Source: Patescibacteria group bacterium
GTDB lineage: Bacteria; Patescibacteriota; Patescibacteriia; UM-FILTER-42-10
Direction of reading: 5' to 3'
Assembly: GCA_018825385.1 (NCBI GenBank)
Contig: JAHJEX010000056.1
Span: 1 to 42,611 of the forward strand
Length of the DNA: 42,611 nt
Shown here piece after piece: positions 2,527-38,307 of the stretch (position 1 is the stretch's first letter; every line of letters starts with the position of its first letter). A model generated the notes under the pieces. It was not told the DNA's origin. It did not search any database and saw nothing but the letters and a program-made list of their open reading frames with translations. Made by a program: the position numbers and the translations under genes.

Positions 2527-2573
2527 AGTTTTGTCTTGAAATAAAAAAAGACCGTTGTCAGTAAGGACGCGGG

Positions 2574-13560: not shown

Positions 13561-14613
13561 CTAGAAAATACCCTTTTCTCGAAGCCATTCCAGTATCACC
13601 GGTTCGATCTGCCTACGCAGAGACTTGTTGGCATAGCCACACCAGTGTACGGGAGTATGAACATCCATTGGTGGACAAAGCTCATTGCCTAGCCCATCAG
13701 TAATGATTACACCAGCTTTCTGAGCGATTGTGATCCCTGCAACATCATATGGGTGACATTCTAGACCGCGCACTTTCTGGTTGGTCTCTTTTTCTAGAAT
13801 CTGGTAGAACAGTGGACGAAGATCACAGCAGAAACGATCATGTCCCAATATCAACTCAACCATCTGACCGGCGGTCGAGATGTACTGATCCTCAAAGACT
13901 AGTGCAGATCCTTCTTCTTGATCGCCCAGAGTTTTGGAAACAATCCGTTCCATTAACTCAGAAGCTAGTACCTTAGTGCCAGGAAAGAAGTTAGCAACCT
14001 GGGCAAAACCGTACTGCAAACTGGTGGCTGTACTAGGAACAGCCTTGATTTTAGAAACAGTTTCACTATTTATGTCTTTCTGGAGTGTCCGAATGCCTCT
14101 AGCGTTGCTTTGAGTAATAAAGATGGATCTTGCAGTTTGGCGACTGGGTGGAATTTCAAGCATCATAGAGACAACAGCATCTGCAACACTGGTTTCGGGT
14201 CCCAGATTTGGAGCAACGGCAGCAATAAACCATGCAGACCGCTTGTCATACATGATATTGCGAGTGCCATCGATTGGATCAATAATCAATCGCCACTTAG
14301 GTTTCGATTCTTTCGGACCAAAACACATGATACCATTCTCGCCTAATCCTTCGCATATCAGGATTAGCGGAAACAGTTTGTCAAGATCACCTGATCTTAA
14401 CCAGCTATTGATCTGAACCAGAATTAGAGGTTCCACTTCCCGGTCGATAGCAAAAATGGTGTCGCCTCCGGCGAAACCAATGGCTTTGCGAAGTGACTCT
14501 TGATCGCGCTGTTGCGACCTTTGTATGTTCCTGACAACTGTGTTTCCAAGATCTGACAGTCGCCAGATCCAGCTGCCGATGTCAGTGGCACTTATGTTGG
14601 GCTGGCGAGTCAT
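13561..14613 (-). CDS. inositol monophosphatase/FBPase (FIG) superfamily phosphatase
   Basis: CEGL, IIDPIDGT and HPYDVAG metal-binding motifs; SD GAGGAGG. Confidence 0.85.
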   Translation of the reverse strand: MTRQPNISATDIGSWIWRLSDLGNTVVRNIQRSQQRDQESLRKAIGFAGGDTIFAIDREVEPLILVQINSWLRSGDLDKLFPLILICEGLGENGIMCFGPKESKPKWRLIIDPIDGTRNIMYDKRSAWFIAAVAPNLGPETSVADAVVSMMLEIPPSRQTARSIFITQSNARGIRTLQKDINSETVSKIKAVPSTATSLQYGFAQVANFFPGTKVLASELMERIVSKTLGDQEEGSALVFEDQYISTAGQMVELILGHDRFCCDLRPLFYQILEKETNQKVRGLECHPYDVAGITIAQKAGVIITDGLGNELCPPMDVHTPVHWCGYANKSLRRQIEPVILEWLREKGIF

Positions 14614-14804
14614 GGCGACCTCCTCAGAGGTAGGATTTTTAAGGGCGACTATTCAATCCACAAATCGGATTGATTTTTTAGACTACTATAAATGGATATC
14701 GGTGTCAAGTTGCCATAACCAGAAAGCACTAAAAAAATACCCCCACCAGTTGAACCGATGGGGGCGAGCGCATGAGCTCCCAAATAGGGAGCCGCGACTC
14801 GTCA

Positions 14805-15236
14805 TTAGCACCGCAGGGGGTGCCAGGTGCAGGTGCCGGTGGCGCCGGCGAGGGTGGCCGTCGTCGTATAGTTGGCCGTCACATCGAAACTGCTCATGCT
14901 CAATTCCACGTATGAGTTCACCATCAGCGCCGAAGCGCTGGCGGGAAGAACCCCGACGTAGTTACGAGATCCCTTCGCCCGCAGGTAGAAATGGGTATCG
15001 GAGGTGTTGATGACGAAGCCGGCCGTCGCGGAGATCGCGCCGTCGTTCACATATGCGGCGGAAGAGCTCGTGAGGCCGAGGCCCTCGGCGCCGGCGTTGG
15101 CGTCCAGGGTGGTGATCGTCGGGATCGTTGCGGAGATCGATTGTATTGAAGAGAACTCGTTGGCGCTCGCTGTGAGCGGCGGGATCAGCATGATCCCGAG
15201 CACGACGAGCGCGAGCAGGACATTGAGTCGTCTCAA
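14805..15236 (-). CDS. secreted hypothetical protein, markedly GC-rich
   Basis: AAGGAGG SD with TTG start; signal peptide ending ASA; TTGACA-17-TAAGAT promoter at 15311-15339; terminator ~14731-14766. Confidence 0.75.
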   Translation of the reverse strand: MRRLNVLLALVVLGIMLIPPLTASANEFSSIQSISATIPTITTLDANAGAEGLGLTSSSAAYVNDGAISATAGFVINTSDTHFYLRAKGSRNYVGVLPASASALMVNSYVELSMSSFDVTANYTTTATLAGATGTCTWHPLRC

Positions 15237-15437
15237 GACGACACCTCCTTGTTCAGGGAATGCCCGTTGTTGGGCAACCTGACAAAATATGAAAATATGT
15301 CAGGTTGATCATCTTATACTATTTACTGTATTTTGTCAACCCCATTAGGGAATTTTCTCTAACAGGGCCAAGATGTGGGTTTGATTTTACTTCAAAATAA
15401 GTGCTAAACTGCATATATAATCATTAGTATAAACAAT

Positions 15438-15635
15438 ATGAATGAATTTGAAGTACCAAAAGATAGAAGACCAGAAGCGGCTCGACTATTCAATGAGATG
15501 GATGTTGAAGAAACGCTAAATGTACTTGATAAATTGGATAAGGCCGGTCAGGGCGATAACACGGTAACTGAACTTATTGACCAACTTACTGCTCTTCGTG
15601 GAAGGAATCTAGAAAAAAGAGACGAAGCTGCGTAA
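15438..15635 (+). CDS. hypothetical protein (65 aa)
   Basis: First ORF of a tightly packed plus-strand run. Confidence 0.6.
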   Translation: MNEFEVPKDRRPEAARLFNEMDVEETLNVLDKLDKAGQGDNTVTELIDQLTALRGRNLEKRDEAA

Positions 15636-17697: not shown

Positions 17698-17830
17698 AAA
17701 TTTGTCTGAATATATTGATCTTGTTAGAATCAGAAATTCAACAGAATTGACAACAAACTAATTTTTTCGTAAGGTAAATTACCGTATCCACTGATGGATC
17801 ATTGAAAATGAGCCTTAGGAAGGAGGCAAA

Positions 17831-18016
17831 GTGACTCGCAGAAAAAGGAAGAAGATCGGAAGAAGAACTGCTGATAATCAGGAGAATGGTCCGATGAGTG
17901 ATAGTACCATGCTTGCTTGTCTTGTGTGGATTGCAATAATCCTAGCTGTTATTTTCAGCGGAAGGACAGATGAGCAAAGAGACGGTGCTGGCAGTCAGAT
18001 CGAGCAGCAAGAGTAG
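17831..18016 (+). CDS. small single-TM hypothetical protein
   Basis: AAGGAGG SD with GTG start; basic N-terminus followed by a hydrophobic helix. Confidence 0.6.
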   Translation: MTRRKRKKIGRRTADNQENGPMSDSTMLACLVWIAIILAVIFSGRTDEQRDGAGSQIEQQE

Positions 18017-18053
18017 CGTGCGGAAAGTCCGTACATTCAGGAAGGACCTCAAA

Positions 18054-18950
18054 ATGTCACGATTAATCACCTGTGCCTTTATCGGTGGAACCGGTATGGG
18101 TACACTGTTCGGAGATCTGGGATTCAAAACTGGAGGACACCGGAGCATTAAGACGCCCTACGGCGATGAAGTGATGTACACCATCGTCCGGCGCGGTGAC
18201 CTTGCCTTCGTGGCGATTGACCGGCACTACTCAACCGGCAATTTTCGTCAGGCGGATCAGCTGGACCATCGAGCATACATGTATGCTCTTTGGAAGGTGA
18301 ACCAGTTTTTTCCCAGTGTGTTCAACATCCAGTACATCTTCAGCACATCCGCGGTCGGCGGTTTACACAATACCCGTCACGTCCAGGACGGTTTGGAATT
18401 GGGGGATATTGTGGTCCCCCATGACGTGAAGGACTTCACTCGGGGAGTGTGGAGTTACTCTGTCAAGGATCGCTATGTGCATCCCACGGCGTTCCACCGG
18501 TCAGCCAACGGCTTGTTCTGTCGGCATCTCCAGCAACTGCTTCAGGAGAACGAACAGGTGAAATTCGGTGGCGTGCTGGCTTGCGCGATTACGGGTCCGC
18601 TGTACGAGACTCCGGTCGAGATCGTTGAATTTACCCGTCATGGCATCTTCAATCTGCTCGGTATGCAGACGGTAACACCAGAGGCGTACTACGCTCGTCA
18701 GAACAGCATGCATCTGGCAGTGGCTTGTGTGGTCACGGACACGCCGGACGTGGAACATGATGTGGACGGCGAAGAAGTTGCCCGGATCATGAACTTACGG
18801 AAGCCTCTTCTGGCTGATCTGTTCGTGACTGCCATGCTGGATGTACAGGACATGGCTGGATTCAAGTGCTCGTGCACCAAAAAGCTGCCTGTGTTCCACG
18901 AAGACCTGGCTGGTGATCCGGCGGATGTAATGGGTATGCCTGTAGACTAG
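18054..18950 (+). CDS. MTAP/purine nucleoside phosphorylase family protein (divergent)
   Basis: FIGGTG, TPYG, DRH, STSAVGGL, GDIVVP, GPLYETPVE, GMQTVTPEA and VVTD motifs; start set at ATG 18054 after GGAAGG. Confidence 0.85.
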   Translation: MSRLITCAFIGGTGMGTLFGDLGFKTGGHRSIKTPYGDEVMYTIVRRGDLAFVAIDRHYSTGNFRQADQLDHRAYMYALWKVNQFFPSVFNIQYIFSTSAVGGLHNTRHVQDGLELGDIVVPHDVKDFTRGVWSYSVKDRYVHPTAFHRSANGLFCRHLQQLLQENEQVKFGGVLACAITGPLYETPVEIVEFTRHGIFNLLGMQTVTPEAYYARQNSMHLAVACVVTDTPDVEHDVDGEEVARIMNLRKPLLADLFVTAMLDVQDMAGFKCSCTKKLPVFHEDLAGDPADVMGMPVD

Positions 18951-19119
18951 TCACGACCGATATTTTGATCTTTATTTCTAACATATTCGATGGACCAAAC
19001 TTATTCGCACCAAGGATGGTCCTTTTTTCTTTGATGCTTATTTAGCAAATGATCACTTCGACCATAGTGGATCTGCCTCACGTCGATGAACAACCACAAG
19101 TCGAGGCGGGGAAGTCTAT

Positions 19120-19329
19120 GGATTTCTCGACTTCGCTCGAAATGACATATTAACGTCCCTGTGTCATTCCGGAATTCGCCAGAAGTTGAGGACAGGTTTT
19201 GCAGGAATGACAGGTAGAATAGGAATGACAACTGAATATGGCAAATACTATGCACATGTCATTCCGGAATTCGCTCGCCTCGCTTATATTATGGCGAAGC
19301 GGGCCGGAAGGCGAATATCCGGAATCCAG
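19120..19329. repeat. REP-like (TGTCATT...GGAATC) palindromic repeat cluster
   Basis: GATTTCTCGACTTCGCTCGAAATGACA; TGTCATTCCGGAATTCGC at 19162 and 19257; GGAATGACA at 19204 and 19222. Confidence 0.8.
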
Positions 19330-25779: not shown

Positions 25780-28068
25780 ATGAATAAACGTTCCAATACT
25801 ATATGGCTTATTATACTGATAGTAGTGTTCGGTCTTGGTGCTTATTATATAGTAAATGAAAATGCTACGGATAATACGAATACTACGGTAGCAACCAATA
25901 CAAACGCATCAAACACTAATCAAGACACTAAATTCGTTGATTCGCTGAAAACGCCCGAAGCTCTGGCATCGTCTTTTGCCGAGTATGAACCGGTGATAGT
26001 GGATGTCGACCCGCAGGTTCCTGCAATTGACGTGGCGGAAGATTTTTCCAATGTGAATAATTTTGATCAAGTATCATACTTGCTCAGTGGTACAAATCAG
26101 AAGGCACAGTTGCTGGATGAAGGGTTTATTGTAGAACCTGGATGGGGTGATGAGTTCTTTTCTGTCTATGAGCAGAACAGATATAACTACAGACCAAGTT
26201 TTGTTACTGTTGATTCTCTTTTGCATAACTACCATCTGCTGTTTGATCATTTACTGAGACAAACAGAAGAAAGTTATTTGATTGAAAATTTAAAATCATT
26301 AAACGCTACAATGTTGAATGTCTCGCAGGAACAGTATGAGATTCTCAAAAATACTGATTGGCAAAATTCTGCTAAAAGAAATGTAGGACTATTTGCCGTT
26401 TCCAGTAGACTGCTTGATCCTACTGTAGAAATACCTTCAATCGTTAAAACAGAAGTGGAAGGGGAATTAAAATTAATAGAAGAGAAGGCGGGAATTGAAA
26501 ATGCTATTGTAGTAAACCTAGGCAGAGAGGAAGAACTTGGTCTGACAAATCCGACGGATGTGGAGATGCCTAGCCTCCTTTTAGAGGACTATTCACAATA
26601 CATACCAAGAGGTCATTATGATAGGACGGAGGAATTGGAAAAATATTTTAAATCAATGATGTGGCTGGGACGCATGACATACCGATTCAGCAATGCAGAC
26701 GAGGCAGCTTCCGCAATTCTCATTACTCAAGCGCTTTCAGATTCGGATATTTCATCTTTATGGCAGTCAATCTATGAGCCAACCAACTTCTTTGTTGGTC
26801 AGAGCGATGATATAACTTATCAGGAATTAGAGCCGCTCATCGATGATGAATACGGTGCTGTATCAGCAGTATCTGAATTGGCAGGCAATAGTTCAGCCTT
26901 TTCAGATCTATTTGTTGCTATCCAAGAAATATCCCCACCAAAGATCAATTCAATCCCAGTATTCCAGGCTAGTATTGAGCCCGATCGCGATACACAAATA
27001 ATAGGGTTTAGATTCATGGGCCAGCGATTTACTCTTGACGCTTCAATTATCCAGAGGCTGATTTGTAGGGATGTGGGGAATAAAAGAGGAACCATAGACT
27101 GCGGAGGACTAATTCCTGATTCTAGGATGCTTCCTAATGGTTTGGATATCCCTGCTGCATTTGGGTCAGACGAAGCTTATACTATATTAGACGATTTGGG
27201 TGAAACAGAATATTATCGATACCCAGAAAACATGGATTTATTGAAAAAGTATATTGTAGGTTTAGACCAAACTATCTGGACACAGAATTTATATTGGGGT
27301 TGGTTATATGCAATTAAACCACTAACGGAACCGGTTGATGAAGGTTACCCAGAATTCATGCAAAACCAATCATGGGTCAGAAAAGATCTGCAATCATTTC
27401 TGGGAAGTTGGGCAGAATTAAAGCATGATACAATCCTGTATGCAAAACAAGCTTATGCTGAATTAGGAGGAGGCCCGATACCGGAATATGATGATAGGGG
27501 ATATGTAGAACCGAGACCGGAAGTTTTCGGTCGTCTTGCCTCATTAACAAAAATGACGCGAGAAGGACTTGAACTGCGCGGTCTAATCAGCGAAAGTATG
27601 TCAGAAAATCTTACCCTTATGGAGACGCTTGCTACTTCGCTTAAAACAATTTCCGAAAAAGAATTGAACAATGAATCCAGAACAGAAGATGAATATGAGT
27701 TGATCCGGTCTTATGGCGGGCAACTGGAACATTTTTGGCTGGAAGTGAACAAAGCTGATATGGAAGTCGCAGGAAAGACTGCGGATCAGTTTCTCACAGA
27801 CAATCCGGCGGCAGTGATTGCTGACGTTGCAACAGACCCGAATGGGGATGTGCTGGAAGTAGGAGTCGGAAAAGTTGATAATATCTACGTTCTGGTTGAA
27901 GTTGAGGGGGTGATAAAAATTGCAAAAGGCGGTGTGTTCTCTTATTACGAATTTCCTTGGCCGCTTAATGATCGGTTGACGGATGATAAATGGAGAGAAT
28001 TATTGGTTTCTGATGAAGTACCTGAGCGCCCAGACTGGCAGGAAATGTTTCTCAGTCAGACGGAATAA
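25780..28068 (+). CDS. DUF3160-domain membrane-anchored protein
   Basis: FVTVDSLLHNYH, EDYSQYIPRGHY, YFKSMMWLGR, FRFMGQRF, SWAELKHDTILYAKQ, GYVEP, GGVFSYYEF and RLTDDKW motifs. Confidence 0.88.
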   Translation: MNKRSNTIWLIILIVVFGLGAYYIVNENATDNTNTTVATNTNASNTNQDTKFVDSLKTPEALASSFAEYEPVIVDVDPQVPAIDVAEDFSNVNNFDQVSYLLSGTNQKAQLLDEGFIVEPGWGDEFFSVYEQNRYNYRPSFVTVDSLLHNYHLLFDHLLRQTEESYLIENLKSLNATMLNVSQEQYEILKNTDWQNSAKRNVGLFAVSSRLLDPTVEIPSIVKTEVEGELKLIEEKAGIENAIVVNLGREEELGLTNPTDVEMPSLLLEDYSQYIPRGHYDRTEELEKYFKSMMWLGRMTYRFSNADEAASAILITQALSDSDISSLWQSIYEPTNFFVGQSDDITYQELEPLIDDEYGAVSAVSELAGNSSAFSDLFVAIQEISPPKINSIPVFQASIEPDRDTQIIGFRFMGQRFTLDASIIQRLICRDVGNKRGTIDCGGLIPDSRMLPNGLDIPAAFGSDEAYTILDDLGETEYYRYPENMDLLKKYIVGLDQTIWTQNLYWGWLYAIKPLTEPVDEGYPEFMQNQSWVRKDLQSFLGSWAELKHDTILYAKQAYAELGGGPIPEYDDRGYVEPRPEVFGRLASLTKMTREGLELRGLISESMSENLTLMETLATSLKTISEKELNNESRTEDEYELIRSYGGQLEHFWLEVNKADMEVAGKTADQFLTDNPAAVIADVATDPNGDVLEVGVGKVDNIYVLVEVEGVIKIAKGGVFSYYEFPWPLNDRLTDDKWRELLVSDEVPERPDWQEMFLSQTE

Positions 28069-28855: not shown

Positions 28856-29315
28856 AATCTCTAATTCCTAATATCTAATTTCTTATCAAATCCCAATGAC
28901 CAATGGAAAAATTAATAAATATGATCTAGAGGAAAGGACTGCGAAACTTGGAGAGCAGATAATAAAATTCACAAATGACATGCCTAAAAGTCCAGTGACG
29001 CTACCCCTGATTACCCAATTAGTAAAATCAGGCACAAATGTCGGGGCAAATTATTGCGAAGCTGATGACGCTGAGTCAAGAAAAGATTTTAAGCACAAAA
29101 TTGGGATTTGCAAAAAAGAAGCTAGAGAAACAAAACATTGGCTGAGAATGATTATTATTGCTGTACCATCCTGCAAAAATGAAGCCATGAAATTGTGGCA
29201 GGAAGCAAAGGAGTTAAATCTTATTTTTAATGCAATAACTAATTCATTAAAGAGGAATATCGAGTGATTGGACATTATGCATTAGGCATTTATTAGAAAT
29301 TAGGAATTAGAGATT
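28856..29315. repeat. 24-bp inverted repeats built of heptamers flanking the four-helix-bundle gene
   Basis: 28856-28879 AATCTCTAATTCCTAATATCTAAT versus reverse complement of 29292-29315, 1 mismatch. Confidence 0.85.
28896..29267 (+). CDS. four helix bundle protein (TIGR02436 / 23S rRNA IVP family)
   Basis: YDLEERT, QLVKSGTNVGANYCEA, ESRKDFKHKIGICKKEARETKHWL and EAKELNLIF motifs. Confidence 0.93.
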   Translation: MTNGKINKYDLEERTAKLGEQIIKFTNDMPKSPVTLPLITQLVKSGTNVGANYCEADDAESRKDFKHKIGICKKEARETKHWLRMIIIAVPSCKNEAMKLWQEAKELNLIFNAITNSLKRNIE

Positions 29316-29533: not shown

Positions 29534-30139
29534 ATGATTATTAACAATAAGACTATGCCTAAATTAATAGTTCTTAATAATAAAAATCGAAAAATAATAC
29601 CAATCCTGCTAATATTTGAACTGGCTTTTATATTTTTTCCTCATAGTGATTCAAAGGCATATACTTATGGAGGTCAAAAATGGAGTAATGGTAAAGCAGG
29701 TTATTATCTTGATATAGCAGGATGGGATCCAACTTTGATTGTGTATCCGGCGCATACTTGGAATGATGCTGGGTCGCCGTTCAGGTTCAATTTCAAAGGG
29801 CATAATATATATCACGATAGAGATGGTAAGAATACAGTTACACGTTTTACAATGAATAATAGTAGGCCAGCTGAGACTCGTCTTAGATGGAATGGGAACT
29901 CTCTTTCTGAGGCTGATGTGGTTTTTAATATGCGTTATGGATGGGGATGTTGTGGGGAGCCAAATTTATATGATGTCAAAAACGCAATGACTCATGAGTT
30001 TGGCCACTGGTTAGTCTTACTGGATCAAAACAATCCCTGGGACTATTGGGATACGATGTACAAAACTACTTATCCGGGTGAGACAAGAAAGAGAACACTG
30101 CATAGCGATGATAGGAATGGAATTAATTACATCTATTAG
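29534..30139 (+). CDS. secreted matrixin/M10-like zinc metalloprotease
   Basis: Signal peptide; EADVVFN, YDVKNAMTHEFGHWLVLLD (HExxH), Met-turn TMY and LHSDDRNGINYIY. Confidence 0.88.
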   Translation: MIINNKTMPKLIVLNNKNRKIIPILLIFELAFIFFPHSDSKAYTYGGQKWSNGKAGYYLDIAGWDPTLIVYPAHTWNDAGSPFRFNFKGHNIYHDRDGKNTVTRFTMNNSRPAETRLRWNGNSLSEADVVFNMRYGWGCCGEPNLYDVKNAMTHEFGHWLVLLDQNNPWDYWDTMYKTTYPGETRKRTLHSDDRNGINYIY

Positions 30140-30159: not shown

Positions 30160-30771
30160 ATGAAAAAAGCAATTCCAATTATATCTACACTATTGGTGGT
30201 AGGCGCATTACTATATGTAGGAATACTAATGTTTTCTGGTTATACCAATGAAAAGGAGATTGTAAATTATTTGGAGCAAAACAAGCTAGATATTCCGGAG
30301 GGAAAAGAAGTAGTTGAGATGCGAGGTTTATTGCCAAATGATCCTACGACAAAGAACATTTCTGAAGATACCAAAATTATTGTTCATGGTAAAGTGGAAA
30401 AAATCACTGATCCATATAAAGGAGATCATGATGCTGTTTATCACGATATACTAATTAAACCGAAGGAAGTATTTAAAAACGTTGCTAAAGTTGATGAAAA
30501 TGAGTTGTTAACAGCTGAGATATATGGTGGTGAAATTGACGATGTAACCTATTGGTCTCCTGGAGCTGCAAGTTTTAAAGAAGGAGAAGAGGTAATACTA
30601 TTTCTAGGAAAAGTTGACGGATTTGATAAGTACTATGTTTCATATGGGGTTTATGGGAAATTAACTATAGAAAATGGGATAGTAAATGGAATCAATAAGG
30701 AAGATGGCCTAGTCGATATGAGTTTAGAAAAATATACTGAAAAACTAAATAGGGTACTATCGAGTAGCTAA
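30160..30771 (+). CDS. membrane-anchored partner protein of the metalloprotease
   Basis: N-terminal TM; IIVHGKV...GGEI...FKEGEEVILFL pattern. Confidence 0.8.
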   Translation: MKKAIPIISTLLVVGALLYVGILMFSGYTNEKEIVNYLEQNKLDIPEGKEVVEMRGLLPNDPTTKNISEDTKIIVHGKVEKITDPYKGDHDAVYHDILIKPKEVFKNVAKVDENELLTAEIYGGEIDDVTYWSPGAASFKEGEEVILFLGKVDGFDKYYVSYGVYGKLTIENGIVNGINKEDGLVDMSLEKYTEKLNRVLSSS

Positions 30772-30790
30772 ATCAAATAAAATTCTAGTA

Positions 30791-30838
30791 TAAAAGGGCG
30801 TCCTCGACTCTCAAGTATGAGAGAATGACGTCCTTTTA
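30791..30838 (+). promoter_or_regulatory. GGCGTC leader hairpin plus U-tract (family copy 3)
   Basis: TAAAAGGGCGTC / GACGTCCTTTTA outer stem with inner CTCTCA/TGAGAG stem. Confidence 0.65.
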
Positions 30839-30897
30839 GCCAAAATGAAAATTAAAGGTCGCATTGGGCATGAGAATAATTATTAAAGAAAAAACCA

Positions 30898-31323
30898 ATG
30901 GATCTAAATAAAGTAACAATGATCGGCAATCTAACAAAAGATCCGATCGGCAAAAAAATTGCATCCGGCCAAAGCATTACATATTTTGGCCTTGCAACCA
31001 ATTATTCGTGGAAAGATATAAAAACTAAAGAGCGCAAAGAAAAAGTCGAGTTTCATAACATAATTGCCTGGGGAAGACTGGGCGAGATTGTAACAACTTA
31101 CCTAAAAAAAGGCGACAAAGTATATATCGAAGGCCGATTGCAAAACAGAAAATGGGAAGATGATAAAGGGGAAAAGCGTTCTAAATCAGAAGTAGTGGCG
31201 CAGAATCTGATAATGCTCGGCAAGGCCAGTGCAGTTAAGGAGAAAGTTGGAAATGAAGCTCAGAAACAGAATGCAACAGAAGAAGTAAGTGCAGAAGAGG
31301 TACCAGTTATAGAAGTAGAATAA
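30898..31323 (+). CDS. ssb: single-stranded DNA-binding protein lacking the DDIPF-type tail
   Basis: LNKVTMIGNLTKDP, EFHNIIAWG and LKKGDKVYIEGRLQ motifs. Confidence 0.93.
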   Translation: MDLNKVTMIGNLTKDPIGKKIASGQSITYFGLATNYSWKDIKTKERKEKVEFHNIIAWGRLGEIVTTYLKKGDKVYIEGRLQNRKWEDDKGEKRSKSEVVAQNLIMLGKASAVKEKVGNEAQKQNATEEVSAEEVPVIEVE

Positions 31324-31325
31324 TT

Positions 31326-31675
31326 TTATCTCCTCTCCTTGGGGTTCTTCGTAGGCTGAAGGACCTCGAGACAAAGAAGATAAGACGTTGGGCGTTCGAA
31401 ACTGATTGATTTCAGTTTAGACGCTCTTTTCATTTCAAGCCGTTCTCAGATCTTTGAGAACAAAACCTGTCTAAGGAGGTGAAACCATTAAAAGCCCTTT
31501 CTTTGAATCGCAGAAAACGTTTCTCTTAAACAAGGAGTAGTGTCATGAAACGGACACTTTGGATTCTCGGAATGGCCATCTGCATGGTGGCCGTGTTCAT
31601 GGTCGCAGGTTGCGACCAGACGGATTTACCCATGTCGCCGCCAACCGACGAGGTTGTCGTCGATCAGCCGGGGGA
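31326..31675 (+). repeat. 350-bp direct repeat, copy 1 (structured leader plus lipoprotein N-terminus)
   Basis: Aligns without gaps to 34105-34454; 4 substitutions in the 219-nt non-coding part. Confidence 0.97.
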
Positions 31676-32294
31676 TGATGGTTTTCTGACTGCTGAGCAG
31701 ATCAACGCTATCGGCCAGAAACAGCATGAAGAGTTTCTGGCAAACGGTGGTGTGCTCCCGCAGCACGACGGAGAAAAGAGCTGGCAGGTTTACGTGCACG
31801 TACCGTTCTATAGCCAAAAAGACTATCACTGGAGTGGTGTTGGTCTTGGATTCAACTATGACGGTAGATCCACAATCGGAAGATATGGATGTCATCTGTG
31901 TTGTGTTTCCATGCTCTATGCTAAATGGGGGTATGGGTCAGAAACAAATCCTCCGAACCTGAACGCGTGGAAGAAGAGGTCTCGTGACCACTACGCCTTT
32001 TCAACTTCAGCGAATGGGGATCTAATCCGACCAACTCAAGCACTGGAGTATCCCTACAATTGTCGTCCTTGGTACACTATCTCCTCGAGCCAGATTTATG
32101 GCGAGTTGAGGCGAGGTCGACCAGTGATTGTGAGGACTACCTATGGGGGGAGCCATTTCATGGTCATTTTCGCCTTTGATGGCCAGCGGTTCTGGGTAAA
32201 GGACCCGCTTAAAGACGGGAATCATCAAAGTGTGCCACTCTACGGCGATGCACACCCGAAAAAACCTTTCCGAGTGTATGGTTATAGCCGATAA
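31545..32294 (+). CDS. lipoprotein with C39-like (papain-fold) peptidase domain
   Basis: Lipobox VAG-C; VPFYSQKD, IGRYGC, GRPVIV, SHFMVI and VKDP motifs. Confidence 0.85.
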   Translation: MKRTLWILGMAICMVAVFMVAGCDQTDLPMSPPTDEVVVDQPGDDGFLTAEQINAIGQKQHEEFLANGGVLPQHDGEKSWQVYVHVPFYSQKDYHWSGVGLGFNYDGRSTIGRYGCHLCCVSMLYAKWGYGSETNPPNLNAWKKRSRDHYAFSTSANGDLIRPTQALEYPYNCRPWYTISSSQIYGELRRGRPVIVRTTYGGSHFMVIFAFDGQRFWVKDPLKDGNHQSVPLYGDAHPKKPFRVYGYSR

Positions 32295-32308
32295 GTGGCT
32301 TAGCTTGA

Positions 32309-32345
32309 GGTGTGGGGGTCATAACGATCCTCACACCCATTTTTT
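32309..32345 (+). terminator. intrinsic terminator
   Basis: GGTGTGGGGGTC/GATCCTCACACC stem followed by T6. Confidence 0.8.
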
Positions 32346-32401
32346 CAAATAGCGTACCTTTGTTTATATGCTATAATTGAAACGAATTTATTAGTAATAC
32401 T

Positions 32402-33565
32402 ATGGATAAAAAAACGGGAATAATTATATTTGTGCTTCTCACTGTTTTTGTTTTTGGTATTTTCGTGGTGGTATCATTACTAGATGGAGAACGTAATTTG
32501 GAAATGGAGATTAGTAGTATTGAAAATGGAGAAGTTGATGATGAAATTGTCGAAGCTGGTAAAGATCAACATATATTTAGATCTACTGGTATTCGTGATA
32601 ATAACTGGATTCAGTATGTAAGTATTGAATATGATTTCGCAATTGATATACCACGTGAGTTCTATTGTTCTCTTTCACCAGAAGTTCTTTGGGGTGGTAA
32701 CACAGTCTATTGTCTAAGGCCAAACTCCAATTCCTCTAATAGTCAAGACGATCCACTTTTTATTGAAATTTTCTCGACAGGGTATGATTACACACAAAAA
32801 GATGCGTTTGAAAATTGGTATAAAAATGGAATAGAAAAATATTACGCACGTCAACTTGATAAAATTGCTAGCGAAGAATCTCTATTTACATTAACTCATG
32901 AAACAACTACAGGGGGCATTGCTTCATACGTATATTTTCCAACAAAAGAAACTGTGCTAACAATTGGCTCAACAGTTGTCTCAGAGGAAGAGATTCTAGA
33001 AATTGCAAATTCATTTCACTGGAAAGATGAATCACAAATAAGTAATATTAATAATAATTTAAACAGCTCTACTAATGATGAATGGATAACATTTACCGCA
33101 GATGAAATAGACCTCAGATTATCTTATCCCGGAAACTGGAAAAAATATTATGACTATTCCGAAGACTATGGTTTTACACTAGAATTAGAATCTAATATTC
33201 AAGTTTATAATGTTGATCCATTAACAAACCAGGGGGCTGAAGGTCCGTTAATAGAATTTCGTGTCAATAGTCAACCAAACTTTGAAAATTATGTACTAAG
33301 TGATTGGGTTAGTCACTCTTCTGCTGTTGAAGATGAACAAGAAAGAATTAGAAAAGACATTCAGGGGTATATGGGTTACACACAATGGATTTGGCATCAA
33401 AGTAATCCATTTGCGTTTTCTTCCATAAATTATTATGTTGATGTAAACGATGAAATTTGGGAATTTAGAGCAAGTATAAATGATGATAATCCTGAGTCAG
33501 AACAGTTTATAAAATCAAAAAAGATTATAGAGCAAATCTTCGAGAGTATTGAGTTTACAGATTAA
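32402..33565 (+). CDS. membrane-anchored acidic protein with two PsbP-like domains
   Basis: N-terminal TM; WIQY..YDFAIDIP and WITF..LRLSYPGNW; ends EQIFESIEF; TGCTATAAT promoter upstream. Confidence 0.75.
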   Translation: MDKKTGIIIFVLLTVFVFGIFVVVSLLDGERNLEMEISSIENGEVDDEIVEAGKDQHIFRSTGIRDNNWIQYVSIEYDFAIDIPREFYCSLSPEVLWGGNTVYCLRPNSNSSNSQDDPLFIEIFSTGYDYTQKDAFENWYKNGIEKYYARQLDKIASEESLFTLTHETTTGGIASYVYFPTKETVLTIGSTVVSEEEILEIANSFHWKDESQISNINNNLNSSTNDEWITFTADEIDLRLSYPGNWKKYYDYSEDYGFTLELESNIQVYNVDPLTNQGAEGPLIEFRVNSQPNFENYVLSDWVSHSSAVEDEQERIRKDIQGYMGYTQWIWHQSNPFAFSSINYYVDVNDEIWEFRASINDDNPESEQFIKSKKIIEQIFESIEFTD

Positions 33566-33575
33566 TTCAAAAAAT

Positions 33576-34073
33576 ATGAAGCACAAGCTTATCACTATCA
33601 TAACTATCATTGCCAGCTTGTCTATGAGTTTATACGGCGTTGGTGCTAATGCCGCTGTTTCAGATTACGAAGGAAGTATTTTGCTGGATGTGGAGCGTAA
33701 TGGAGAAGCATATTATGTATATCAGGGAGAAAAATACTTCCTTGGTAGACCATGGCAAGCTTTTGAGATAATGCGAAAATTATCGTTAGGAATATCAGAA
33801 GATAATTTCCAGACAGGATTCCAACAAGTAAATGATATCTGGCAGATCTATAGAATAGTAAATATATACTTATTTCCCTACATTCAGGGTAGGATAGTCA
33901 TACGTCCCGAAGCCAATGGAGAAGCTTATTATGTGACCCCCAATCTTGCCGGAGGAAGTGGATATTCTGCTGAGTATCTTGGAAGGCCTTATGATGCATT
34001 TCAGATAATGACAAAGTTTGGACAAGGCACGCAGTCGGCACAAATAGATTCGATTCCAAATGGTACTCTGTAA
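33576..34073 (+). CDS. secreted protein with two G-x-I-L/V...NGEAYYV...LGRP..AF.IM repeats
   Basis: Signal peptide ending ANA; tandem repeat visible in the translation. Confidence 0.85.
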   Translation: MKHKLITIITIIASLSMSLYGVGANAAVSDYEGSILLDVERNGEAYYVYQGEKYFLGRPWQAFEIMRKLSLGISEDNFQTGFQQVNDIWQIYRIVNIYLFPYIQGRIVIRPEANGEAYYVTPNLAGGSGYSAEYLGRPYDAFQIMTKFGQGTQSAQIDSIPNGTL

Positions 34074-34104
34074 ATAATATCTGTTTAGACTAAGCAAAAT
34101 ACAA

Positions 34105-34454
34105 TTATCTCCTCTCCTTGGGGTTCTTCGCAAGATGAAGGACCTCGAGACAAAGAAGATAAGACGTTGGGCGTTCGAAACTGATTGATTTCAGTTTAGA
34201 CGCTCTTTTCATTTCAAGCCGTTCTCAGATCTTTGAGAACAAAACCTGTCTAAGGAGGTAAAACCATTAAAAGCCCTTTCTTTGAATCGCAGAAAACGTT
34301 TCTCTTAAACAAGGAGTAGTGTCATGAAACGGACACTCTGGATTCTCGGATTGGCCATCTGTACGGTGGCCATGTTCTGGGTCACGGGCTGTGACCAGAC
34401 GGATTCACCCATGTCGCCGCCAACCGACGAGGTTGTCGTCGATCAGCCGGGGGA
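34105..34454 (+). repeat. 350-bp direct repeat, copy 2
   Basis: Matches 31326-31675 at an offset of 2779 bp. Confidence 0.97.
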
Positions 34455-34935
34455 GGAGGGGGCACAGGTAGAGAAATCTGCCTTGTCGAATTACTGGCGT
34501 TCCGCTGTCTACCGCGAGATCTGCTACGCGCTTTCCCGCGTACGCTACAATGCCGGTGATTGGGGTGCTTCTACCCGAATCTACCACGGATGGTTTGCCG
34601 GTGACTGGGACTACAGTAACCGAAGCAACATCATCGGGTGGGGTGGCGAATGTAAACAGTTCGCACGTGAAATCGTCTGGCGGGCGACTGGTCAGAACTG
34701 TCTTCCGACTAGTTACTACTACGCTAATGGTGACATTGCTTGGTGCCGTCCTGGTGATGTGATCCAGCGCAGGCCTCCTAATCAGCACACGGCCATCGTT
34801 TTCAAAGTGTTGGCTCGTGATTCACATGGTCGTGCGACGAAGATCGATGTCATCGATAGCAACTACATCCGGTATCACACGATCGGCAGGCACGTCCTGA
34901 GTGGCAGTACGCTTTCCAAGTACAAGGTTTGGTAG
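34324..34935 (+). CDS. lipoprotein with CHAP/NlpC-P60-like amidase domain
   Basis: Lipobox VTG-C; GGECKQFA, PGDVIQ, HTAIV and IDVIDSNY motifs. Confidence 0.75.
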   Translation: MKRTLWILGLAICTVAMFWVTGCDQTDSPMSPPTDEVVVDQPGEEGAQVEKSALSNYWRSAVYREICYALSRVRYNAGDWGASTRIYHGWFAGDWDYSNRSNIIGWGGECKQFAREIVWRATGQNCLPTSYYYANGDIAWCRPGDVIQRRPPNQHTAIVFKVLARDSHGRATKIDVIDSNYIRYHTIGRHVLSGSTLSKYKVW

Positions 34936-34940
34936 TCCTC

Positions 34941-34989
34941 TGTGGTCGATACGGCTCATTACGAGCTAGTATCGGCCACATACTTTTTT
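34941..34989 (+). terminator. intrinsic terminator
   Basis: TGTGGTCGATAC/GTATCGGCCACA stem followed by T6. Confidence 0.8.
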
Positions 34990-35031
34990 CTCAGTAAATA
35001 AAGTGATATAATTAAATAACATTGGTTAATT

Positions 35032-35640
35032 ATGAAAGGAAATAATATGAAAAAATCTCTCTATACAATAGGTGTGTTACTAGTAGTAGGTATTTTTGCC
35101 TACTATGCAGCGACGACACTAAGTAAGAACGATCAGGATAATGATAATGCAAATACCAATAGCGTAGTGAATAGCGAATGGAAGACTTATAGTCATGATT
35201 CTGGTTTATCTTTTGATTATCCTGAGAATGCTACAGTGTGGCCGGATGGGTATAAGGAAGAATCTGGTTCTTTGTCTATCATAAAGAATAGCGATTACAT
35301 TGATGATTATATGGAAGAATATGTGTTATTCAAGAATGGTATCCCAGGGATTACGTTATCAGAATATATTTCTCAAAATAGTGCTCCAGAATATAAAGAT
35401 AGTAAGAAAGAAATTGACTTGAATGGAATGACCGCATATCAGTATGTAGTAAAAAATCCTACTGATATCTATCTTGGAACATTCTTTGAAGATAATAATA
35501 GCAATTACTATGATTTCTATATTGAACAAGGTGCTCCTAGTCTTGAAGGGAAAATAACTGGAGAATTGTCACAAGAGTATCTTAATCAGATTGAATCTAC
35601 ATATACTCAGATTTTGAATAGCATTAAGTTTGTTAACTAG
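35032..35640 (+). CDS. membrane-anchored PsbP-like protein
   Basis: N-terminal TM; WKTY..GLSFDYP; ends QILNSIKF; TGATATAAT promoter upstream. Confidence 0.78.
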   Translation: MKGNNMKKSLYTIGVLLVVGIFAYYAATTLSKNDQDNDNANTNSVVNSEWKTYSHDSGLSFDYPENATVWPDGYKEESGSLSIIKNSDYIDDYMEEYVLFKNGIPGITLSEYISQNSAPEYKDSKKEIDLNGMTAYQYVVKNPTDIYLGTFFEDNNSNYYDFYIEQGAPSLEGKITGELSQEYLNQIESTYTQILNSIKFVN

Positions 35641-35651
35641 CTTTTAGAAAT

Positions 35652-36749
35652 ATGAATAAAATATCAAAAATATTACTCACAATTCTATTAATTGTTGTGC
35701 TTGGTTTTGGTGCATACTACACAATAAATGAAATCTCTACTGAAGATACAAACACAGCTACAATAATAAATACAACTGCAGAAGAGGAAGAAATAACTGC
35801 TGCAGAAGAAGATTTTGAATACAAAACAATAACTTTTAGAGATGAAGTTCACGCTGTTTCAATGCAAATTCTTGAACAATGGAAAGATTATCCTCTAAAT
35901 ATTAATGACAGAGAAAAAGCTAGTTTGTTAAGCTTTGATGTCGAAGAACTAAATCCAACATCACTAGAAGATGGTTATCCATATTCCGCAGATTTGAGTT
36001 GGTATAATTCAAATGGAATTGAATTAAATGCATGGGTAGAAGAACATTATGATAATGAGCTTACTACACATTCAGTATGTAATGGAGTGTACAATACATC
36101 TACTAATGATGGCTATAATGGTGTCGAAGTTGTGTGTAAGGAAGAATATGAAGCGTCTTATACAAACACAGGCCATTCAGCGACTAGAGCGTATTACTTT
36201 TTTAGTGTTGGTGACTATATTTATAAGTTTATGGTTTATTTAGGAACTTCTATGTATACAAATATGCAACCTATTATTGAAGAAATTAAAGATAGTATAG
36301 TTTTTGGTGAACCATTTAATCTTGATGAATGGAAAACATATGCAAGTGAAGATAATGGTTTTAGTGTGAAGTATCCACCAGTTTGGTATGTATCAGAAAA
36401 CTGGGAACAGCTTGGAGGATTTGTTGGTTTTGATGAAATAAAGGATCTTTTTGAGGGTCATAAGGTAACAATAAGTACACATTCTGATGAGGGATATACA
36501 AGCTCATTGGCAGGGCAAACAAGATTAGAAAATACTCAATTATCTTATCCTCATATTGGGGGTGTCCCCGCAGTTAGAATTAGTGGAATTTTTCCTGAAC
36601 CTACATATGGGTTTTCAGATTATACTGATTCCGTTTTTGTAATGAGTGACGGGTTAGGAATAGAAATGGCATATCAGGAAACGGGTTTTGATCTTGAATC
36701 TCGTGAAACATTTAGCCAAATGCTCAGAACATTTGAATTTATAAAATAA
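35652..36749 (+). CDS. membrane-anchored protein with two PsbP-like domains
   Basis: N-terminal TM; WKTY..GFSVKYPPVW; EEIKDSIVF; ends QMLRTFEF. Confidence 0.78.
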   Translation: MNKISKILLTILLIVVLGFGAYYTINEISTEDTNTATIINTTAEEEEITAAEEDFEYKTITFRDEVHAVSMQILEQWKDYPLNINDREKASLLSFDVEELNPTSLEDGYPYSADLSWYNSNGIELNAWVEEHYDNELTTHSVCNGVYNTSTNDGYNGVEVVCKEEYEASYTNTGHSATRAYYFFSVGDYIYKFMVYLGTSMYTNMQPIIEEIKDSIVFGEPFNLDEWKTYASEDNGFSVKYPPVWYVSENWEQLGGFVGFDEIKDLFEGHKVTISTHSDEGYTSSLAGQTRLENTQLSYPHIGGVPAVRISGIFPEPTYGFSDYTDSVFVMSDGLGIEMAYQETGFDLESRETFSQMLRTFEFIK

Positions 36750-36754
36750 TCTAG

Positions 36755-37537
36755 ATGCCCCCAAAAAAACAACAACCCCAAAATTCAAAAATAATCAATC
36801 TGCTTTTTCTGATTGCTGTAATTGTAGTTGGTGCTATAGGAGCATATTATTTGATCACAGATTCTGATTCTGATACAGAAATAAATACAAAAAAAAGCGG
36901 TTCAACTAAAACTACCATTACTAATCAACCCGCAAGTTCTTCTAATGAAAATATAAATAAAAATACTTTTGAAGGAGATGAACTAAATGTTGGAAATGGA
37001 TTTACAATCACTGTACCAACGGGATGGAATTTGGCCGGTTTTTTGGAAGACGCTATAAATATTGTGAAATTTGGGTCGCCGGCACAGATCTACACTCTTA
37101 CTCCTGAAGGCGGTCAAATTGATATGTTTGGGCCGGTTATTTCTGTAGACACATTTACAATTGATGAAAATCTGAACGCAACAGAAGTGGTAAACCTGAT
37201 TCATGATCAGGGGATTGCTAGCGATCTAGAAAGAAAAAAAGATAACTGTTTCTTTGAGATGGAGAAATCAAAATTTGGGCAGTTTGATACTTTCTCTTTT
37301 ATTCGAGACAATACTGATCCAGAAAAATGCAATGAAGAAGCAACTGAAACTGCTAAATCCCAGACAGTAGTATTGAAGGAAAAAGGGAATTCTGATACAG
37401 CTATTCTCACACTTGTGGCGATTGACGATCCTCAACTTGTAGCATTACTCCCAGATTTTCAACAAATCTTGGGAAGCATGAAGTATAAAAAAACAGTTTC
37501 TGATACTGTAGAAGAAGCAGTAGAAGAGACTGAATAA
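36755..37537 (+). CDS. membrane-anchored PsbP-like protein
   Basis: N-terminal TM; GFTITVPTGW; FQQILGSMKY. Confidence 0.75.
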   Translation: MPPKKQQPQNSKIINLLFLIAVIVVGAIGAYYLITDSDSDTEINTKKSGSTKTTITNQPASSSNENINKNTFEGDELNVGNGFTITVPTGWNLAGFLEDAINIVKFGSPAQIYTLTPEGGQIDMFGPVISVDTFTIDENLNATEVVNLIHDQGIASDLERKKDNCFFEMEKSKFGQFDTFSFIRDNTDPEKCNEEATETAKSQTVVLKEKGNSDTAILTLVAIDDPQLVALLPDFQQILGSMKYKKTVSDTVEEAVEETE

Positions 37538-37650
37538 AACACGAAAAAAACGCGGAAAGCAAAACCTTCCAATTGATAAATTCGAGAATTGATGAAACAA
37601 TAAACACATATAATGCGCTTCTGCATAATTGTTTAAATGATTAAGCTGAT

Positions 37651-38307
37651 ATGAGAATATATACATTAAAAGAAAAACTGTTAGGAATAATATTATCAAA
37701 TACTAGGAATTCTGATGTTGCCCATGACTCTGAACACACTTTTCGCGTGTTAAAAACAGCAGAAAAAATAGCTCGTGCAGAAAAAGCAGATCTTGAGGTT
37801 GTAATACCTGCCGCATTGTTTCATGATTTTATCGTTTCGGCAAAAAATAATCCCAAATCGAGATCTGACACCAAATTAAGCGCAGATTTTGCTAAGCAGG
37901 TTTTGAGTGAACTCAAAGGATATCCTGCACATAAAATTGACCTTGTTTGTCGGGCTATTTTAGATTGTTCATTTACAAATGGAACTAAGCCAAATTTTTT
38001 GGAGAGCAAGGTGGTTAAAGATGCAGATAGTTTAGATACTGTAGGATCGTTAGGTGTAATGCGTATTTTTGCTACTGCTGGTCAACTTCAGATACCATTT
38101 TATAGTTTGTAGGATCCATTTTGCAGTAAACGCAAGCCAAATCCAAAATTATACGCAATTGATTTCATATTTACACGTTCCCTAAAAGTTTGTGATAACG
38201 TGTATACTAATACTGCTCGTAAGATGGCTCAAAGTAGAAGTAAGTATATTAGAAGTTTCTTAAAGCAATTACAATTAGAACTTAACCAAATATCAAGATT
38301 GAGGTAA
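37651..38307 (+). pseudogene. HD-domain phosphohydrolase (YedJ-like) interrupted by in-frame TAG at 38110-38112
   Basis: AHDSEH, AALFHD and VVKDADSLD motifs; the frame stays open after TAG (DPFCSKRKP..TARKMA..FLKQL) to TAA 38305-38307, 2 nt before the next ATG. Confidence 0.8.

Follow-up and report, generated by a model that had tools for sequence, protein, structure and literature searches.

The stretch of 42,611 nucleotides analysed here (the window) is from a very small, uncultured Patescibacteria bacterium of groundwater, and two of its predicted lipoprotein genes have the same front end and unrelated enzymes behind it. We read this front end as a shared 5' expression-and-address module placed on non-homologous small hydrolase domains, and not as part of a toxin system, with a probability of about 0.7. 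The module would consist of a structured leader of ~219 nt, a type-II signal peptide and then ~23 residues of flexible, acidic/proline linker. In the window it would stand before a C39_2-like and a CHAP-like domain, and relatives would have it before an M23 domain. Recombination (gene conversion, cassette replacement) would spread and homogenise the module, so that the enzymes would come under a common post-transcriptional control and share one tether. Control would be exerted by plus-strand RNA hairpins together with an internal Shine-Dalgarno (SD)-like GGAGG, possibly stabilising the mRNA. The tether would result from Lgt/LspA lipidation on the membrane's outer surface, and the linker would keep the domain at a distance from it, in the wall zone. 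Since the same front end stands on a third enzyme type in relatives, recombination seems to keep a hydrolase family under one control and at one address. The targets of the enzymes would most likely be the peptide links of peptidoglycan, either the cell's own or a host's.

The Patescibacteria form a very large branch of the bacteria, most of it uncultured, and reportedly depend on host cells. Little is known of how they deal with the host's wall and with their own, and no account of such a module in Patescibacteria was found in the literature searched. Copying of one front end among unrelated wall-cutting enzymes, together with its uniformity in each genome, would mark out a set of co-controlled surface enzymes. 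It also provides an experimental handle, the leader plus three small domains, and a case in which non-coding and signal sequences evolve in concert, in genomes of a mere ~1.3 Mb.

The repeated unit

The preliminary description of this region had a unit of ~350 bp occurring twice, after which the genes diverge abruptly, and pairwise alignment confirmed that the repeat is genuine. Copy A (31326-31680, plus strand) comprises a leader of 219 nt, 23 codons of lipoprotein signal and ~23 codons of linker. Copy B (34105-34459, plus strand) is 95% identical to copy A, the match covering 34105-34457, and lies 2.8 kb from it in direct orientation; the genome of 1.27 Mb has only these two copies. Within the leader (31326-31544 in copy A), 4 positions differ between A and B, and the first hairpin loop accounts for 3 of these. 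The coding part common to both has 14 differences, of which 12 fall within 31559-31627 and none within 31628-31675, and the similarity stops at about codon 46. The unit begins 2 nt past the stop codon of ssb (30898-31323, plus strand; Pfam SSB, E = 2.3e-33), in the window as well as in 4/4 related loci.

A lipobox has the motif [LVI][ASTVI][GAS]C after a basic n-region and a hydrophobic h-region. In A and B, MKR is followed by TLWILG.AIC..A.F.V and then by VAG-C or VTG-C at residue 23; these lipoboxes and the linker DQTD.PMSPPTDEVVVDQPG, both named in the earlier account, can be read directly in the sequence. The two genes of the lipidation pathway, whose presence was to be checked, were found in the genome above their cut-offs: lgt (PF01790, 173.8 bits, E = 1.8e-51) and lspA (PF01252, 94.3 bits, E = 6.9e-27). 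The tripeptide EKS, seen before the catalytic region of both proteins, is indeed there (residues 76-78 of A and 50-52 of B), but it is not a conserved site, since only 1 of the 16 C39 relatives listed and 1 of the 20 relatives of gene B have it, and conservation lends no support to its suggested role in maturation.

Both genes are GC-richer than their neighbours, as described (0.51 for A and 0.55 for B against 0.32-0.39; GC3 0.54 and 0.64), but this is not a specific property, ~9% of the ORFs of the genome being likewise. Each has an intrinsic terminator behind it on the plus strand, at 32309-32347 for gene A (from a terminator scan and folding) and at 34943-34990 for gene B (also read directly). 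Both fold strongly 5' of U-runs (z = -5.4 and -7.3, respectively), with 0/200 shuffles equal, in keeping with what was first noted.

Two enzyme bodies behind one front end

Gene A (31545-32294, plus strand) encodes a predicted lipoprotein whose cysteine peptidase domain (Cys116, His204) is C39_2-like and probably of papain fold. The initial C39-like assignment was upheld by Pfam Peptidase_C39_2, which matches above its gathering score (38.6 bits against a cut-off of 24, E = 2e-9) over profile positions 3-142 of 143. Among relatives Cys116 is nearly invariant and His204 is invariant, and in the predicted model they start helix 116-126 and strand 204-211, respectively. The best Foldseek match to the model (pLDDT 74) is 3erv, a C39-like peptidase (probability 0.99, E = 4.5e-3, TM 0.38-0.45), and the second is the pseudomurein endoisopeptidase PeiR; there is no match at E <= 0.001.

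Gene B (34324-34935, plus strand) encodes a predicted lipoprotein whose Cys/His domain (Cys110, His155) is divergent and CHAP-like. The CHAP-like assignment made at the outset is consistent with the Cys/His pattern and, weakly, with relatives and fold neighbours, but gene B itself has no Pfam match at E <= 1. In its family, 10/20 members match Pfam CHAP (PF05257), with a best E of 5.7e-4. Both catalytic candidates are invariant in 20 sequences; in the predicted model Cys110 (in GGxCKxF) starts helix 110-122 and His155 (in HTAIV) starts strand 155-165. Searching the PDB with the sequence and profile of gene B found no CHAP chain. Among the best 10 Foldseek matches in the PDB (E = 0.026-0.08, TM 0.22-0.45), 8 are CHAP-containing by reading of the entries. 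CHAP entries among the matches are 9eum, 4olk, 4csh and four chains of 5t1q, and Ly7917, also found there, is one that we take to be CHAP-containing. As gene B lacks a Pfam match of its own and the family and fold matches score low, the label CHAP-like is weakly held. The linker is predicted to be disordered, with a pLDDT below 50 in both models (residues 21-44 in A and 35-47 in B).

The leader RNA

Three hairpins can be drawn on the plus strand of the leader. Hairpin 1 (31326-31383) is a long interrupted stem with TTATCT...AGATAA as its outer part, 13-14 bp as its inner part and a variable loop. Twenty-two of its pairs are retained across 6 sequences, and the one-sided changes are G-U/G-C and U-G/U-A; such wobble-preserving changes keep the pairing on the plus strand only. 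The folding z-score is -2.8 for this hairpin and likewise for the entire leader. Hairpin 2 (31390-31426, plus strand) has an outer stem, GGGCG...CGCTC, that encloses an inner hairpin. It has a compensatory A-U to G-C change in L012, the nearest relative, and the sequence of the inner stem differs in the G001-G003 clade. Hairpin 3 (31442-31461, plus strand; GTTCTCA/TGAGAAC) has an altered loop and a retained stem in L012. The covariation is thin, because there are only 6 leader sequences from two clades; one clade has 1 compensatory pair, and for the other 5 are predicted. The leaders of the sister genus do not fold better than shuffles. Rfam 15 gave no match at gathering score across the window, and only chance-level matches at E <= 10 within 31200-31700. 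There is no convincing promoter inside the unit. Since the ssb stop codon is immediately followed by hairpin 1 in all the genomes, this hairpin could be the 3' end of the ssb transcript and not part of the hydrolase mRNA.

Downstream of the hairpins, an internal SD-like AAGGAGG (31473-31479, plus strand) lies 65 nt 5' of the ATG of gene A, whose own ribosome-binding site, AAGGAG (31532-31537, plus strand; read directly), has a conserved spacing of 6 nt. The internal element reads GAAAGGAGG in G001 and G002. Agaisse and Lereclus are said to have described in 1996 an SD-type stabiliser of the mRNA 5' end, the STAB-SD of Bacillus thuringiensis cryIIIA. The leaders here may resemble it in that an SD-like GGAGG stands far upstream of the start codon, by 65-97 nt, in 6/6 of them. 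Alternatively, the internal GGAGG may be the start of a short, unconserved reading frame.

One could go further and suppose that the leader is an undescribed cis-regulatory RNA governing a surface wall-hydrolase regulon in epibiotic Patescibacteria, and that the module is a recombination handle by which C39-like, CHAP-like and M23 domains are exchanged at fixed expression sites, as a cassette system for different host walls. We regard this extension as tentative and, on balance, doubtful.

Genes downstream of the module

The genes that follow are AT-rich and encode mostly anchored proteins. Extended -10-like elements, as described and here read directly on the plus strand, stand before the first follower (TGCTATAAT; TGcTATAAT, 32369-32377) and before the third (TGATATAAT; TGaTATAAT, 35004-35012). 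The five followers are all on the plus strand: F1 (32402-33565) encodes a membrane-anchored acidic protein of two domains, D1 and D2; F2 (33549-34073) a secreted protein of no known family, which, of the 5 loci compared, only that of the window has; F3 (35032-35640) an anchored protein; F4 (35652-36749) an anchored acidic protein of two domains; and F5 (36755-37537) an anchored acidic protein. The followers had been called PsbP-like. For F3, the follower whose fold was compared, a PsbP_2-like fold is predicted (TM 0.71 between its Atlas model, pLDDT 0.66, and a PsbP_2 cluster), and F4 has a sub-threshold match to Pfam PsbP_2 (PF18933; E = 0.028, 14.8 bits, below the cut-off of 27), but no follower reaches the Pfam cut-off. 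A homologue of F5 lies two genes past C39 in L012. By reading of the sequence, the gene after an M23 in G005 also appears to resemble F5.

Polymorphic toxin systems combine a constant N-terminus with a variable C-terminal toxin and a downstream immunity gene, and this layout, with cognate partners, was the one first proposed for the region. The hydrolases would then be weapons against the walls of hosts or rivals, with swapped C-termini, and the anchored followers would be their cognate immunity proteins. The likeness is in the varied C-terminal catalytic domain behind a constant N-terminus, in the exchange of domains between species at one locus, and in the AT-rich gene with an N-terminal membrane anchor that follows the module-bearing gene at 8/8 loci in two genera. 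In addition, growth as epibionts is reported for Patescibacteria in excerpts of one account (PMC12102498). However, the constant part here is only 46 residues, a signal of 23 and a linker of 23, without a trafficking domain, and the downstream genes do not co-vary with the type of enzyme. Homologues of F3 are present in 3/3 sister genomes (G001-G003), whereas the CHAP-like family is in 0/3. D2 comes after M23 in G001, but in the window it is fused behind D1 after C39 (54% identity). In 3 loci D1 stands after C39, but in L012 an unrelated protein takes that place. The followers also have promoter-like sites of their own past a strong terminator. The effector-immunity reading is thus unlikely, and the anchored PsbP-like followers are best explained as regular neighbours with their own putative promoters rather than as cognate immunity partners.

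Distribution and probable homogenisation of the module

A search for more C-terminal variants, suggested in the preliminary description, found M23 as a third type. The 46-residue front end occurs in 6 proteins only among 5.8 billion clusters (proteins of 111-356 aa; 6/6 candidates), and these are 2 C39, 2 CHAP-like and 2 M23. The module is common to several genes and limited to a small Patescibacteria clade. The swapping of hydrolase bodies behind a constant front, as originally claimed, extends beyond the window: in one sister species, G001, an M23 gene comes after ssb, and in G000, G002, G003 and L012 it is a C39 gene.

Module copies are more alike within a genome than between genomes. The leaders of A and B are 98.2% identical to each other and each is 82-83% identical to that of L012; the ssb genes of the window genome and L012 are 84.5% identical. 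The first 46 residues are identical in P0031 (CHAP-like) and P0055 (M23), two proteins that appear to belong to one genome, as the longest contig listed for each measures 357,667 bases. Homogenisation is patchy, since in the signal-peptide part A and B are not closer to each other (89%) than either is to L012 (88%). In the sister genus, which has a different module, three G005 genes (two M23 and one C39) are 93-97% alike in the proximal leader, and the distal leader of one of them is 86.5% identical to that of the syntenic orthologue in G004. This mosaic, as seen in the alignments, would be of the conversion type and points to gene conversion.

Could the two copies of the window stem instead from a one-off, neutral segmental duplication in which gene B happened to receive the front of gene A, and which had no lasting function? 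Such an event would account for there being only two copies in the genome, 2.8 kb apart and direct, and for leaders so nearly identical that they look recent. It would not account for the module being found with three types of enzyme across at least 3 other assemblies, whose enzyme bodies are 58-64% identical to those of the window. Moreover, the CHAP-module fusion is found in P0031 as well, and so predates the near-identity of the window leaders, and the different module of the sister genus behaves alike. We consider such a duplication quite unlikely.

Comparison with known systems

The closest analogues of the proposed module would be the shared 5' modules of the Borrelia UHB ('upstream homology box') and the Mycoplasma Vpma/Vsp lipoprotein genes. 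Akins and colleagues reportedly noted in 1999 that the leader peptides of Borrelia UHB genes are also shared and that the mature proteins may be unrelated. In excerpts of a paper on Borrelia burgdorferi (PMC7002432), the UHB genes (OspE/OspF-related, Erp) have similar promoter or upstream sequences across lipoprotein genes of one genome, and it is in this feature, as far as the excerpts go, that the window genes are alike. However, the UHB genes are carried by cp32 prophage plasmids, and their products are not enzymes but surface proteins that bind to the host, whereas the genes here are chromosomal, follow ssb and encode three hydrolase folds; a sequence relation is not expected.

For Mycoplasma agalactiae Vpma and M. 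bovis Vsp genes, excerpts of another paper (PMC2268961) describe conserved 5' UTR and signal-peptide regions, with the rest of the genes lacking significant homology. These too are host-dependent bacteria with small genomes. Their products are repeat-rich antigens, unlike the enzymes here, and switching, with one promoter only, is by an adjacent tyrosine recombinase whose sites lie in the 5' UTR. A switching locus of this type was rejected for the window: Pfam finds no recombinase in 20 neighbouring products, and the copies are not inverted but direct and complete.

Crossing-over between the direct repeats could still delete or amplify the 2.8-kb segment and so switch the enzyme produced, in a kind of phase variation, and repeats of 350 bp with 95% identity lend themselves well to recombination. 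A 350-nt contig of run X7 is A-type but has the B-type letter at the 3 listed of 5 differing places. We hold such a switch to be very unlikely, however: a joint across the repeats was seen in 0/4 runs (contigs drop rare variants), the 20 neighbouring products, 7 of them without a Pfam match at the thresholds used, include no recognisable recombinase, and a silent copy is absent, as both unit copies carry a complete leader.

Finally, an assembly artefact, either a chimera in which foreign, GC-rich reads were joined into an AT-rich contig or a repeat doubled in error, is highly improbable, for although the bin has 4.6% estimated contamination in 90 contigs and short-read graphs break at the repeat, the check across both junctions found the region covered by contigs of 3 DNA runs, each from a different study, with no conflicting joint, the repeat contigs are at 1.5-2.8 times the flank depth, and the same order of ssb, GC-rich hydrolase and AT-rich follower is found in 4 independently assembled relatives.

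The repeated unit and its support in reads

A unit of leader, lipoprotein signal and linker occurs as a direct repeat at 31326-31680 (copy A) and 34105-34457 (copy B), with 95% identity and no further copies in the whole genome (1.27 Mb, 90 contigs). It starts 2 nt after the stop codon of ssb and comprises a 219-nt non-coding leader, a lipoprotein signal of 23 codons (MKRTLWILG.AIC..A.F.V.G-C) and an acidic/proline linker of about 23 codons (DQTD.PMSPPTDEVVVDQPG) that is predicted to be disordered. Beyond codon 46, gene A (31545-32294) and gene B (34324-34935) are unrelated, which bears out the preliminary description of a repeated unit followed by abruptly diverging genes. The copies do not differ evenly along their length: four differences fall in the leader, three of them in the loop of the first hairpin, while 12 lie in 31559-31627 and none in 31628-31675. 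A diversity-generating retroelement was rejected as their source, since the changes are not adenine-specific. Both genes end, as had been claimed, in a terminator with a strong hairpin and a U-run (z -5.4 for A, -7.3 for B), and a TGnTATAAT motif, read from the sequence, follows each terminator ahead of the next gene.

Mis-assembly at the two junctions, a possibility raised at the outset, is not what the reads indicate. Over 30800-37600, contigs from four runs were compared, three of DNA (from three studies) and one of RNA; they have no joints and few letter differences, and they do not phase copies A and B across identical stretches. The assembly graph breaks exactly at the repeat borders, and contigs of the repeat are covered 1.5-2.8 times as deeply as the unique flanks. 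Sequencing run X7 yielded, at twice the depth of the flanks, a contig of 350 nt (31326-31675) with five departures from copy A, of which the three listed (31356, 31481, 31559) have the letter of copy B; this contig represents either a consensus collapsed from both copies or a recombinant variant in that population. Coverage is missing, and says nothing either way, over ssb and the leader's first 200 nt in RNA run X8 and beyond 34205 in X7. The stretch 33800-35200 is partly present in 14 listed runs from seven studies, ten of which hold at least half its words. RNA-library contigs cover A, the downstream genes F1 and F2, B through F3, F4 and F5 at 99% or better; this attests presence in the RNA library, not transcription.

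The enzymes behind the module

Gene A matches Pfam Peptidase_C39_2 over the cut-off, so the C39-like assignment holds. Among 18 relatives its Cys116 is nearly invariant and its His204 invariant, and in the predicted model the Cys opens a helix and the His a strand. Structural comparison ranks 3erv (a C39-like peptidase), the pseudomurein endoisopeptidase PeiR and further peptidases of the papain fold highest, all with weak scores (E of at least 4.5e-3). Gene B is harder to place. Its own protein has no match in Pfam, NCBIfam or PDB sequence searches, and its 27 relatives are unnamed or annotated as hypothetical proteins of Patescibacteria. Cys110 and His155 are nevertheless invariant in 20 sequences and again open a helix and a strand. 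Ten of 20 relatives have some Pfam CHAP hit (best E 5.7e-4), and the top structural matches are CHAP domains, also weak (E 0.026-0.08). Because of these weak hits and matches, gene B is called a divergent CHAP-like domain, a membership not established by a family model, and the earlier CHAP-like assignment holds only weakly. PDB sequence and profile searches gave nothing useful for A and B, nor did NCBIfam for A, B, F1 or F2. The genome encodes both lgt and lspA, as expected of the lipoprotein claim. In both enzyme families, C39 and CHAP-like, the more remote members are lipoproteins too, with unrelated signal peptides.

Distribution of the module

A search with the first 46 residues alone, in 5.8 billion protein clusters and restricted to proteins of 111-356 aa, found six and nothing else: the products of genes A and B; P0003, the C39 protein of the related ssb locus L012; P0054, the M23 peptidase encoded after ssb in sister genome G001; P0031, a CHAP-like protein; and P0055, another M23. 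Further C-terminal variants behind the constant front, as had been anticipated, thus exist, M23 being an additional body type. P0031 and P0055 are identical over their first 46 residues and probably come from one genome, because the longest contig listed for each is 357,667 bases. A 48-residue query against 1.84 billion representatives, too short for that library, returned none at E <= 0.001, which has no bearing on the module's range. Within the genus, the site after ssb is occupied by C39 in the window's genome, G002, G003 and L012, and by M23 in G001, and these five share 78-80% identity over the leader's first 72 nt. The CHAP-like family is patchy, present in one of four genomes of the genus and one of two of the sister genus.

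A second, independent case of a shared module is found in the sister genus. In its genome G005, three GC-rich genes (two M23 and one C39, P0026) open with another module, MWQKSTIIAMAVLAIALAAGFYGCG.QE.PVG, and the proximal 72 nt of their leaders are 93-97% identical. The leader of the M23 gene on contig C12 is a mosaic: its distal part is 86.5% identical to the syntenic orthologue in G004, with which its proximal part aligns only partly. Such a mosaic is the pattern made by gene conversion between paralogues. The window appears to have the same homogenising tendency: the leaders of A and B are 98.2% identical, with 82-83% identity between each and that of L012, and the ssb genes of the window and L012 genomes are 84.5% identical. 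Homogenisation would be patchy, since the signal-peptide parts of A and B (89%) are no closer to each other than to that of L012 (88%). Two of the G005 loci (L039 and L041, on contigs C81 and C73) have longer leaders with about 100 further nt in common at 92% identity; each starts immediately downstream of a TGnTAAAAT-type promoter-like site of its own and includes the T-rich run GTTTTTGTTTTTTT.

The leader RNA

No Rfam family matches the leader. Its predicted fold outscores those of 199 in 200 shuffled sequences (z -2.8); leaders from the sister genus do not surpass their shuffles. Hairpin 1 (31326-31383) has 22 pairs that are kept in all six sequences. One-sided changes at six pairs (G-U to or from G-C, or U-G to or from U-A) preserve pairing in the plus-strand RNA only, and the loop varies freely. 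Hairpin 2 has a compensatory change in L012 (A-U to G-C) and a different inner-stem sequence in G001-G003; hairpin 3 keeps its stem and changes its loop. This covariation rests on six sequences in two clades and is thin. Hairpin 1 may instead be the end of the ssb transcript, copied into position B with the rest of the unit, because it directly follows the ssb stop codon everywhere. An integron attC site was rejected, as the hairpin lacks core sites and no integrase turned up among the neighbouring gene products scanned with Pfam.

[quoted passage not shown] The distant GGAGG recalls the SD-type mRNA stabilisers reportedly described by Agaisse and Lereclus in 1996. A leader peptide was also considered: an ATT-started frame of 17 codons (31478-31531) follows the internal AAGGAGG and stops at the real ribosome site, and L012 has one of 16 codons at the same place with the same end. 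The idea was dropped because the two peptides show no relation and, by eye, G001 and G003 lack the frame. No promoter could be placed in the leader. A scan of 30700-37800 gave 20 sites, none inside the unit, which is no excess over a shuffle mean of 23.7, and the site TTGATT-17-TACAAT of the L012 leader reads, by eye, only TTGATT-17-TTCATT in the window.

Follower genes and the comparison with toxin systems

An AT-rich gene for an anchored protein follows the module-bearing gene in all eight loci examined. F1, F3, F4 and F5 have an N-terminal hydrophobic anchor and are AT-rich. Their description as PsbP-like is plausible for F3, whose Atlas model aligns to a PsbP_2 cluster with TM 0.71, and is less certain for F4, whose PsbP_2 hit is below threshold. 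With D1 and D2 denoting the two domains of F1, the order is ssb, C39, D1+F3 in G003; ssb, C39, D1, F3 in G002; ssb, M23, D2, D1+F3 in G001; ssb, C39, D1+D2, F2, CHAP-like, F3, F4, F5 in the window; and ssb, C39, an unrelated protein, F5 in L012. Set against G002, the window has the appearance of an insertion between D1 and F3 that comprises D2, F2, the leader and the CHAP-like gene with its terminator. Across the five loci the followers are shuffled independently of enzyme type. F2 (33549-34073), a secreted protein of no known family with an internal repeat (EANGEAYYV ... LGRP..AF.IM, twice), occurs only in the window among the five related loci compared.

The polymorphic-toxin layout with downstream partners, proposed earlier, is not supported by these comparisons, the module system failing two of the three defining features of such systems. 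The presence of F3 in three genomes without a CHAP-like gene argues against cognate immunity. The proposed maturation site EKS fares no better: it is in both window proteins, in one of 16 C39 relatives shown and in one of 20 gene-B relatives. EK[SG] precedes the domain in four of the six module-bearing proteins, and P0030 and P0054 share GAQ.EK directly after the linker; in this pair the module simply extends a few residues further. Nothing here favours EKS as a processing site. Overall, the initial observation is confirmed and its interpretation partly supported, the exceptions being the toxin-type layout and EKS.

The module would rather work like the shared 5' modules of lipoprotein families in host-dependent, small-genome bacteria. 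Promoter sequences are common to the OspE/F-related lipoproteins in the UHB genes of Borrelia (PMC7002432), and the 5' UTR and signal-peptide regions of Mycoplasma Vpma/Vsp genes are conserved while the remainder is without homology (PMC2268961). Unlike these, the module here comes with three enzyme folds, both copies are complete and in direct orientation, and no recombinase turned up among the 20 neighbouring gene products scanned with Pfam. A search of a limited body of literature found no published description of this pattern in Patescibacteria.

Base composition and surroundings

Genes A and B have GC contents of 0.51 and 0.55 (GC3 0.54 and 0.64), with neighbours at 0.32-0.39. This was rejected as a mark of the module system because the genome (mean 38.4%) is a mosaic with 92 islands of GC at least 0.48, about 1-2 kb long, and 107 of 1207 crude ORFs have GC of at least 0.47. 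Orthologous C39 and M23 genes of relatives are GC-rich too (0.48-0.55), and foreign origin or frequent exchange is the likely source. Islands within the window include 2201-3200, 14301-15500 and 17801-19300; several island genes look, by their N-termini, like putative purine-synthesis enzymes.

The stretch 29.5-37.5 kb is rich in genes for exported proteins. A small protein at 29534-30139 has a sub-threshold Matrixin (M10) match (23.2 bits, cut-off 24) and weakly matches the family of myxosortase-dependent metalloproteases; its gene is followed by that of an anchored protein (30160-30771). About 2 kb upstream of the unit lies a 23S rRNA-intervening-sequence protein gene (28896-29267, Pfam 1.8e-13), with a look-alike by eye just upstream of the module-bearing C39 gene in G005 (L039, 898-1257). 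A 762-residue DUF3160 protein is encoded upstream of ssb in the window (25780-28068). ORFs of 762 residues also occur downstream, in the follower arrays of G001 (L010, 11193-13481) and G003 (L009, 9354-11642), and may be the DUF3160 gene relocated, a sign of rearrangement at the locus.
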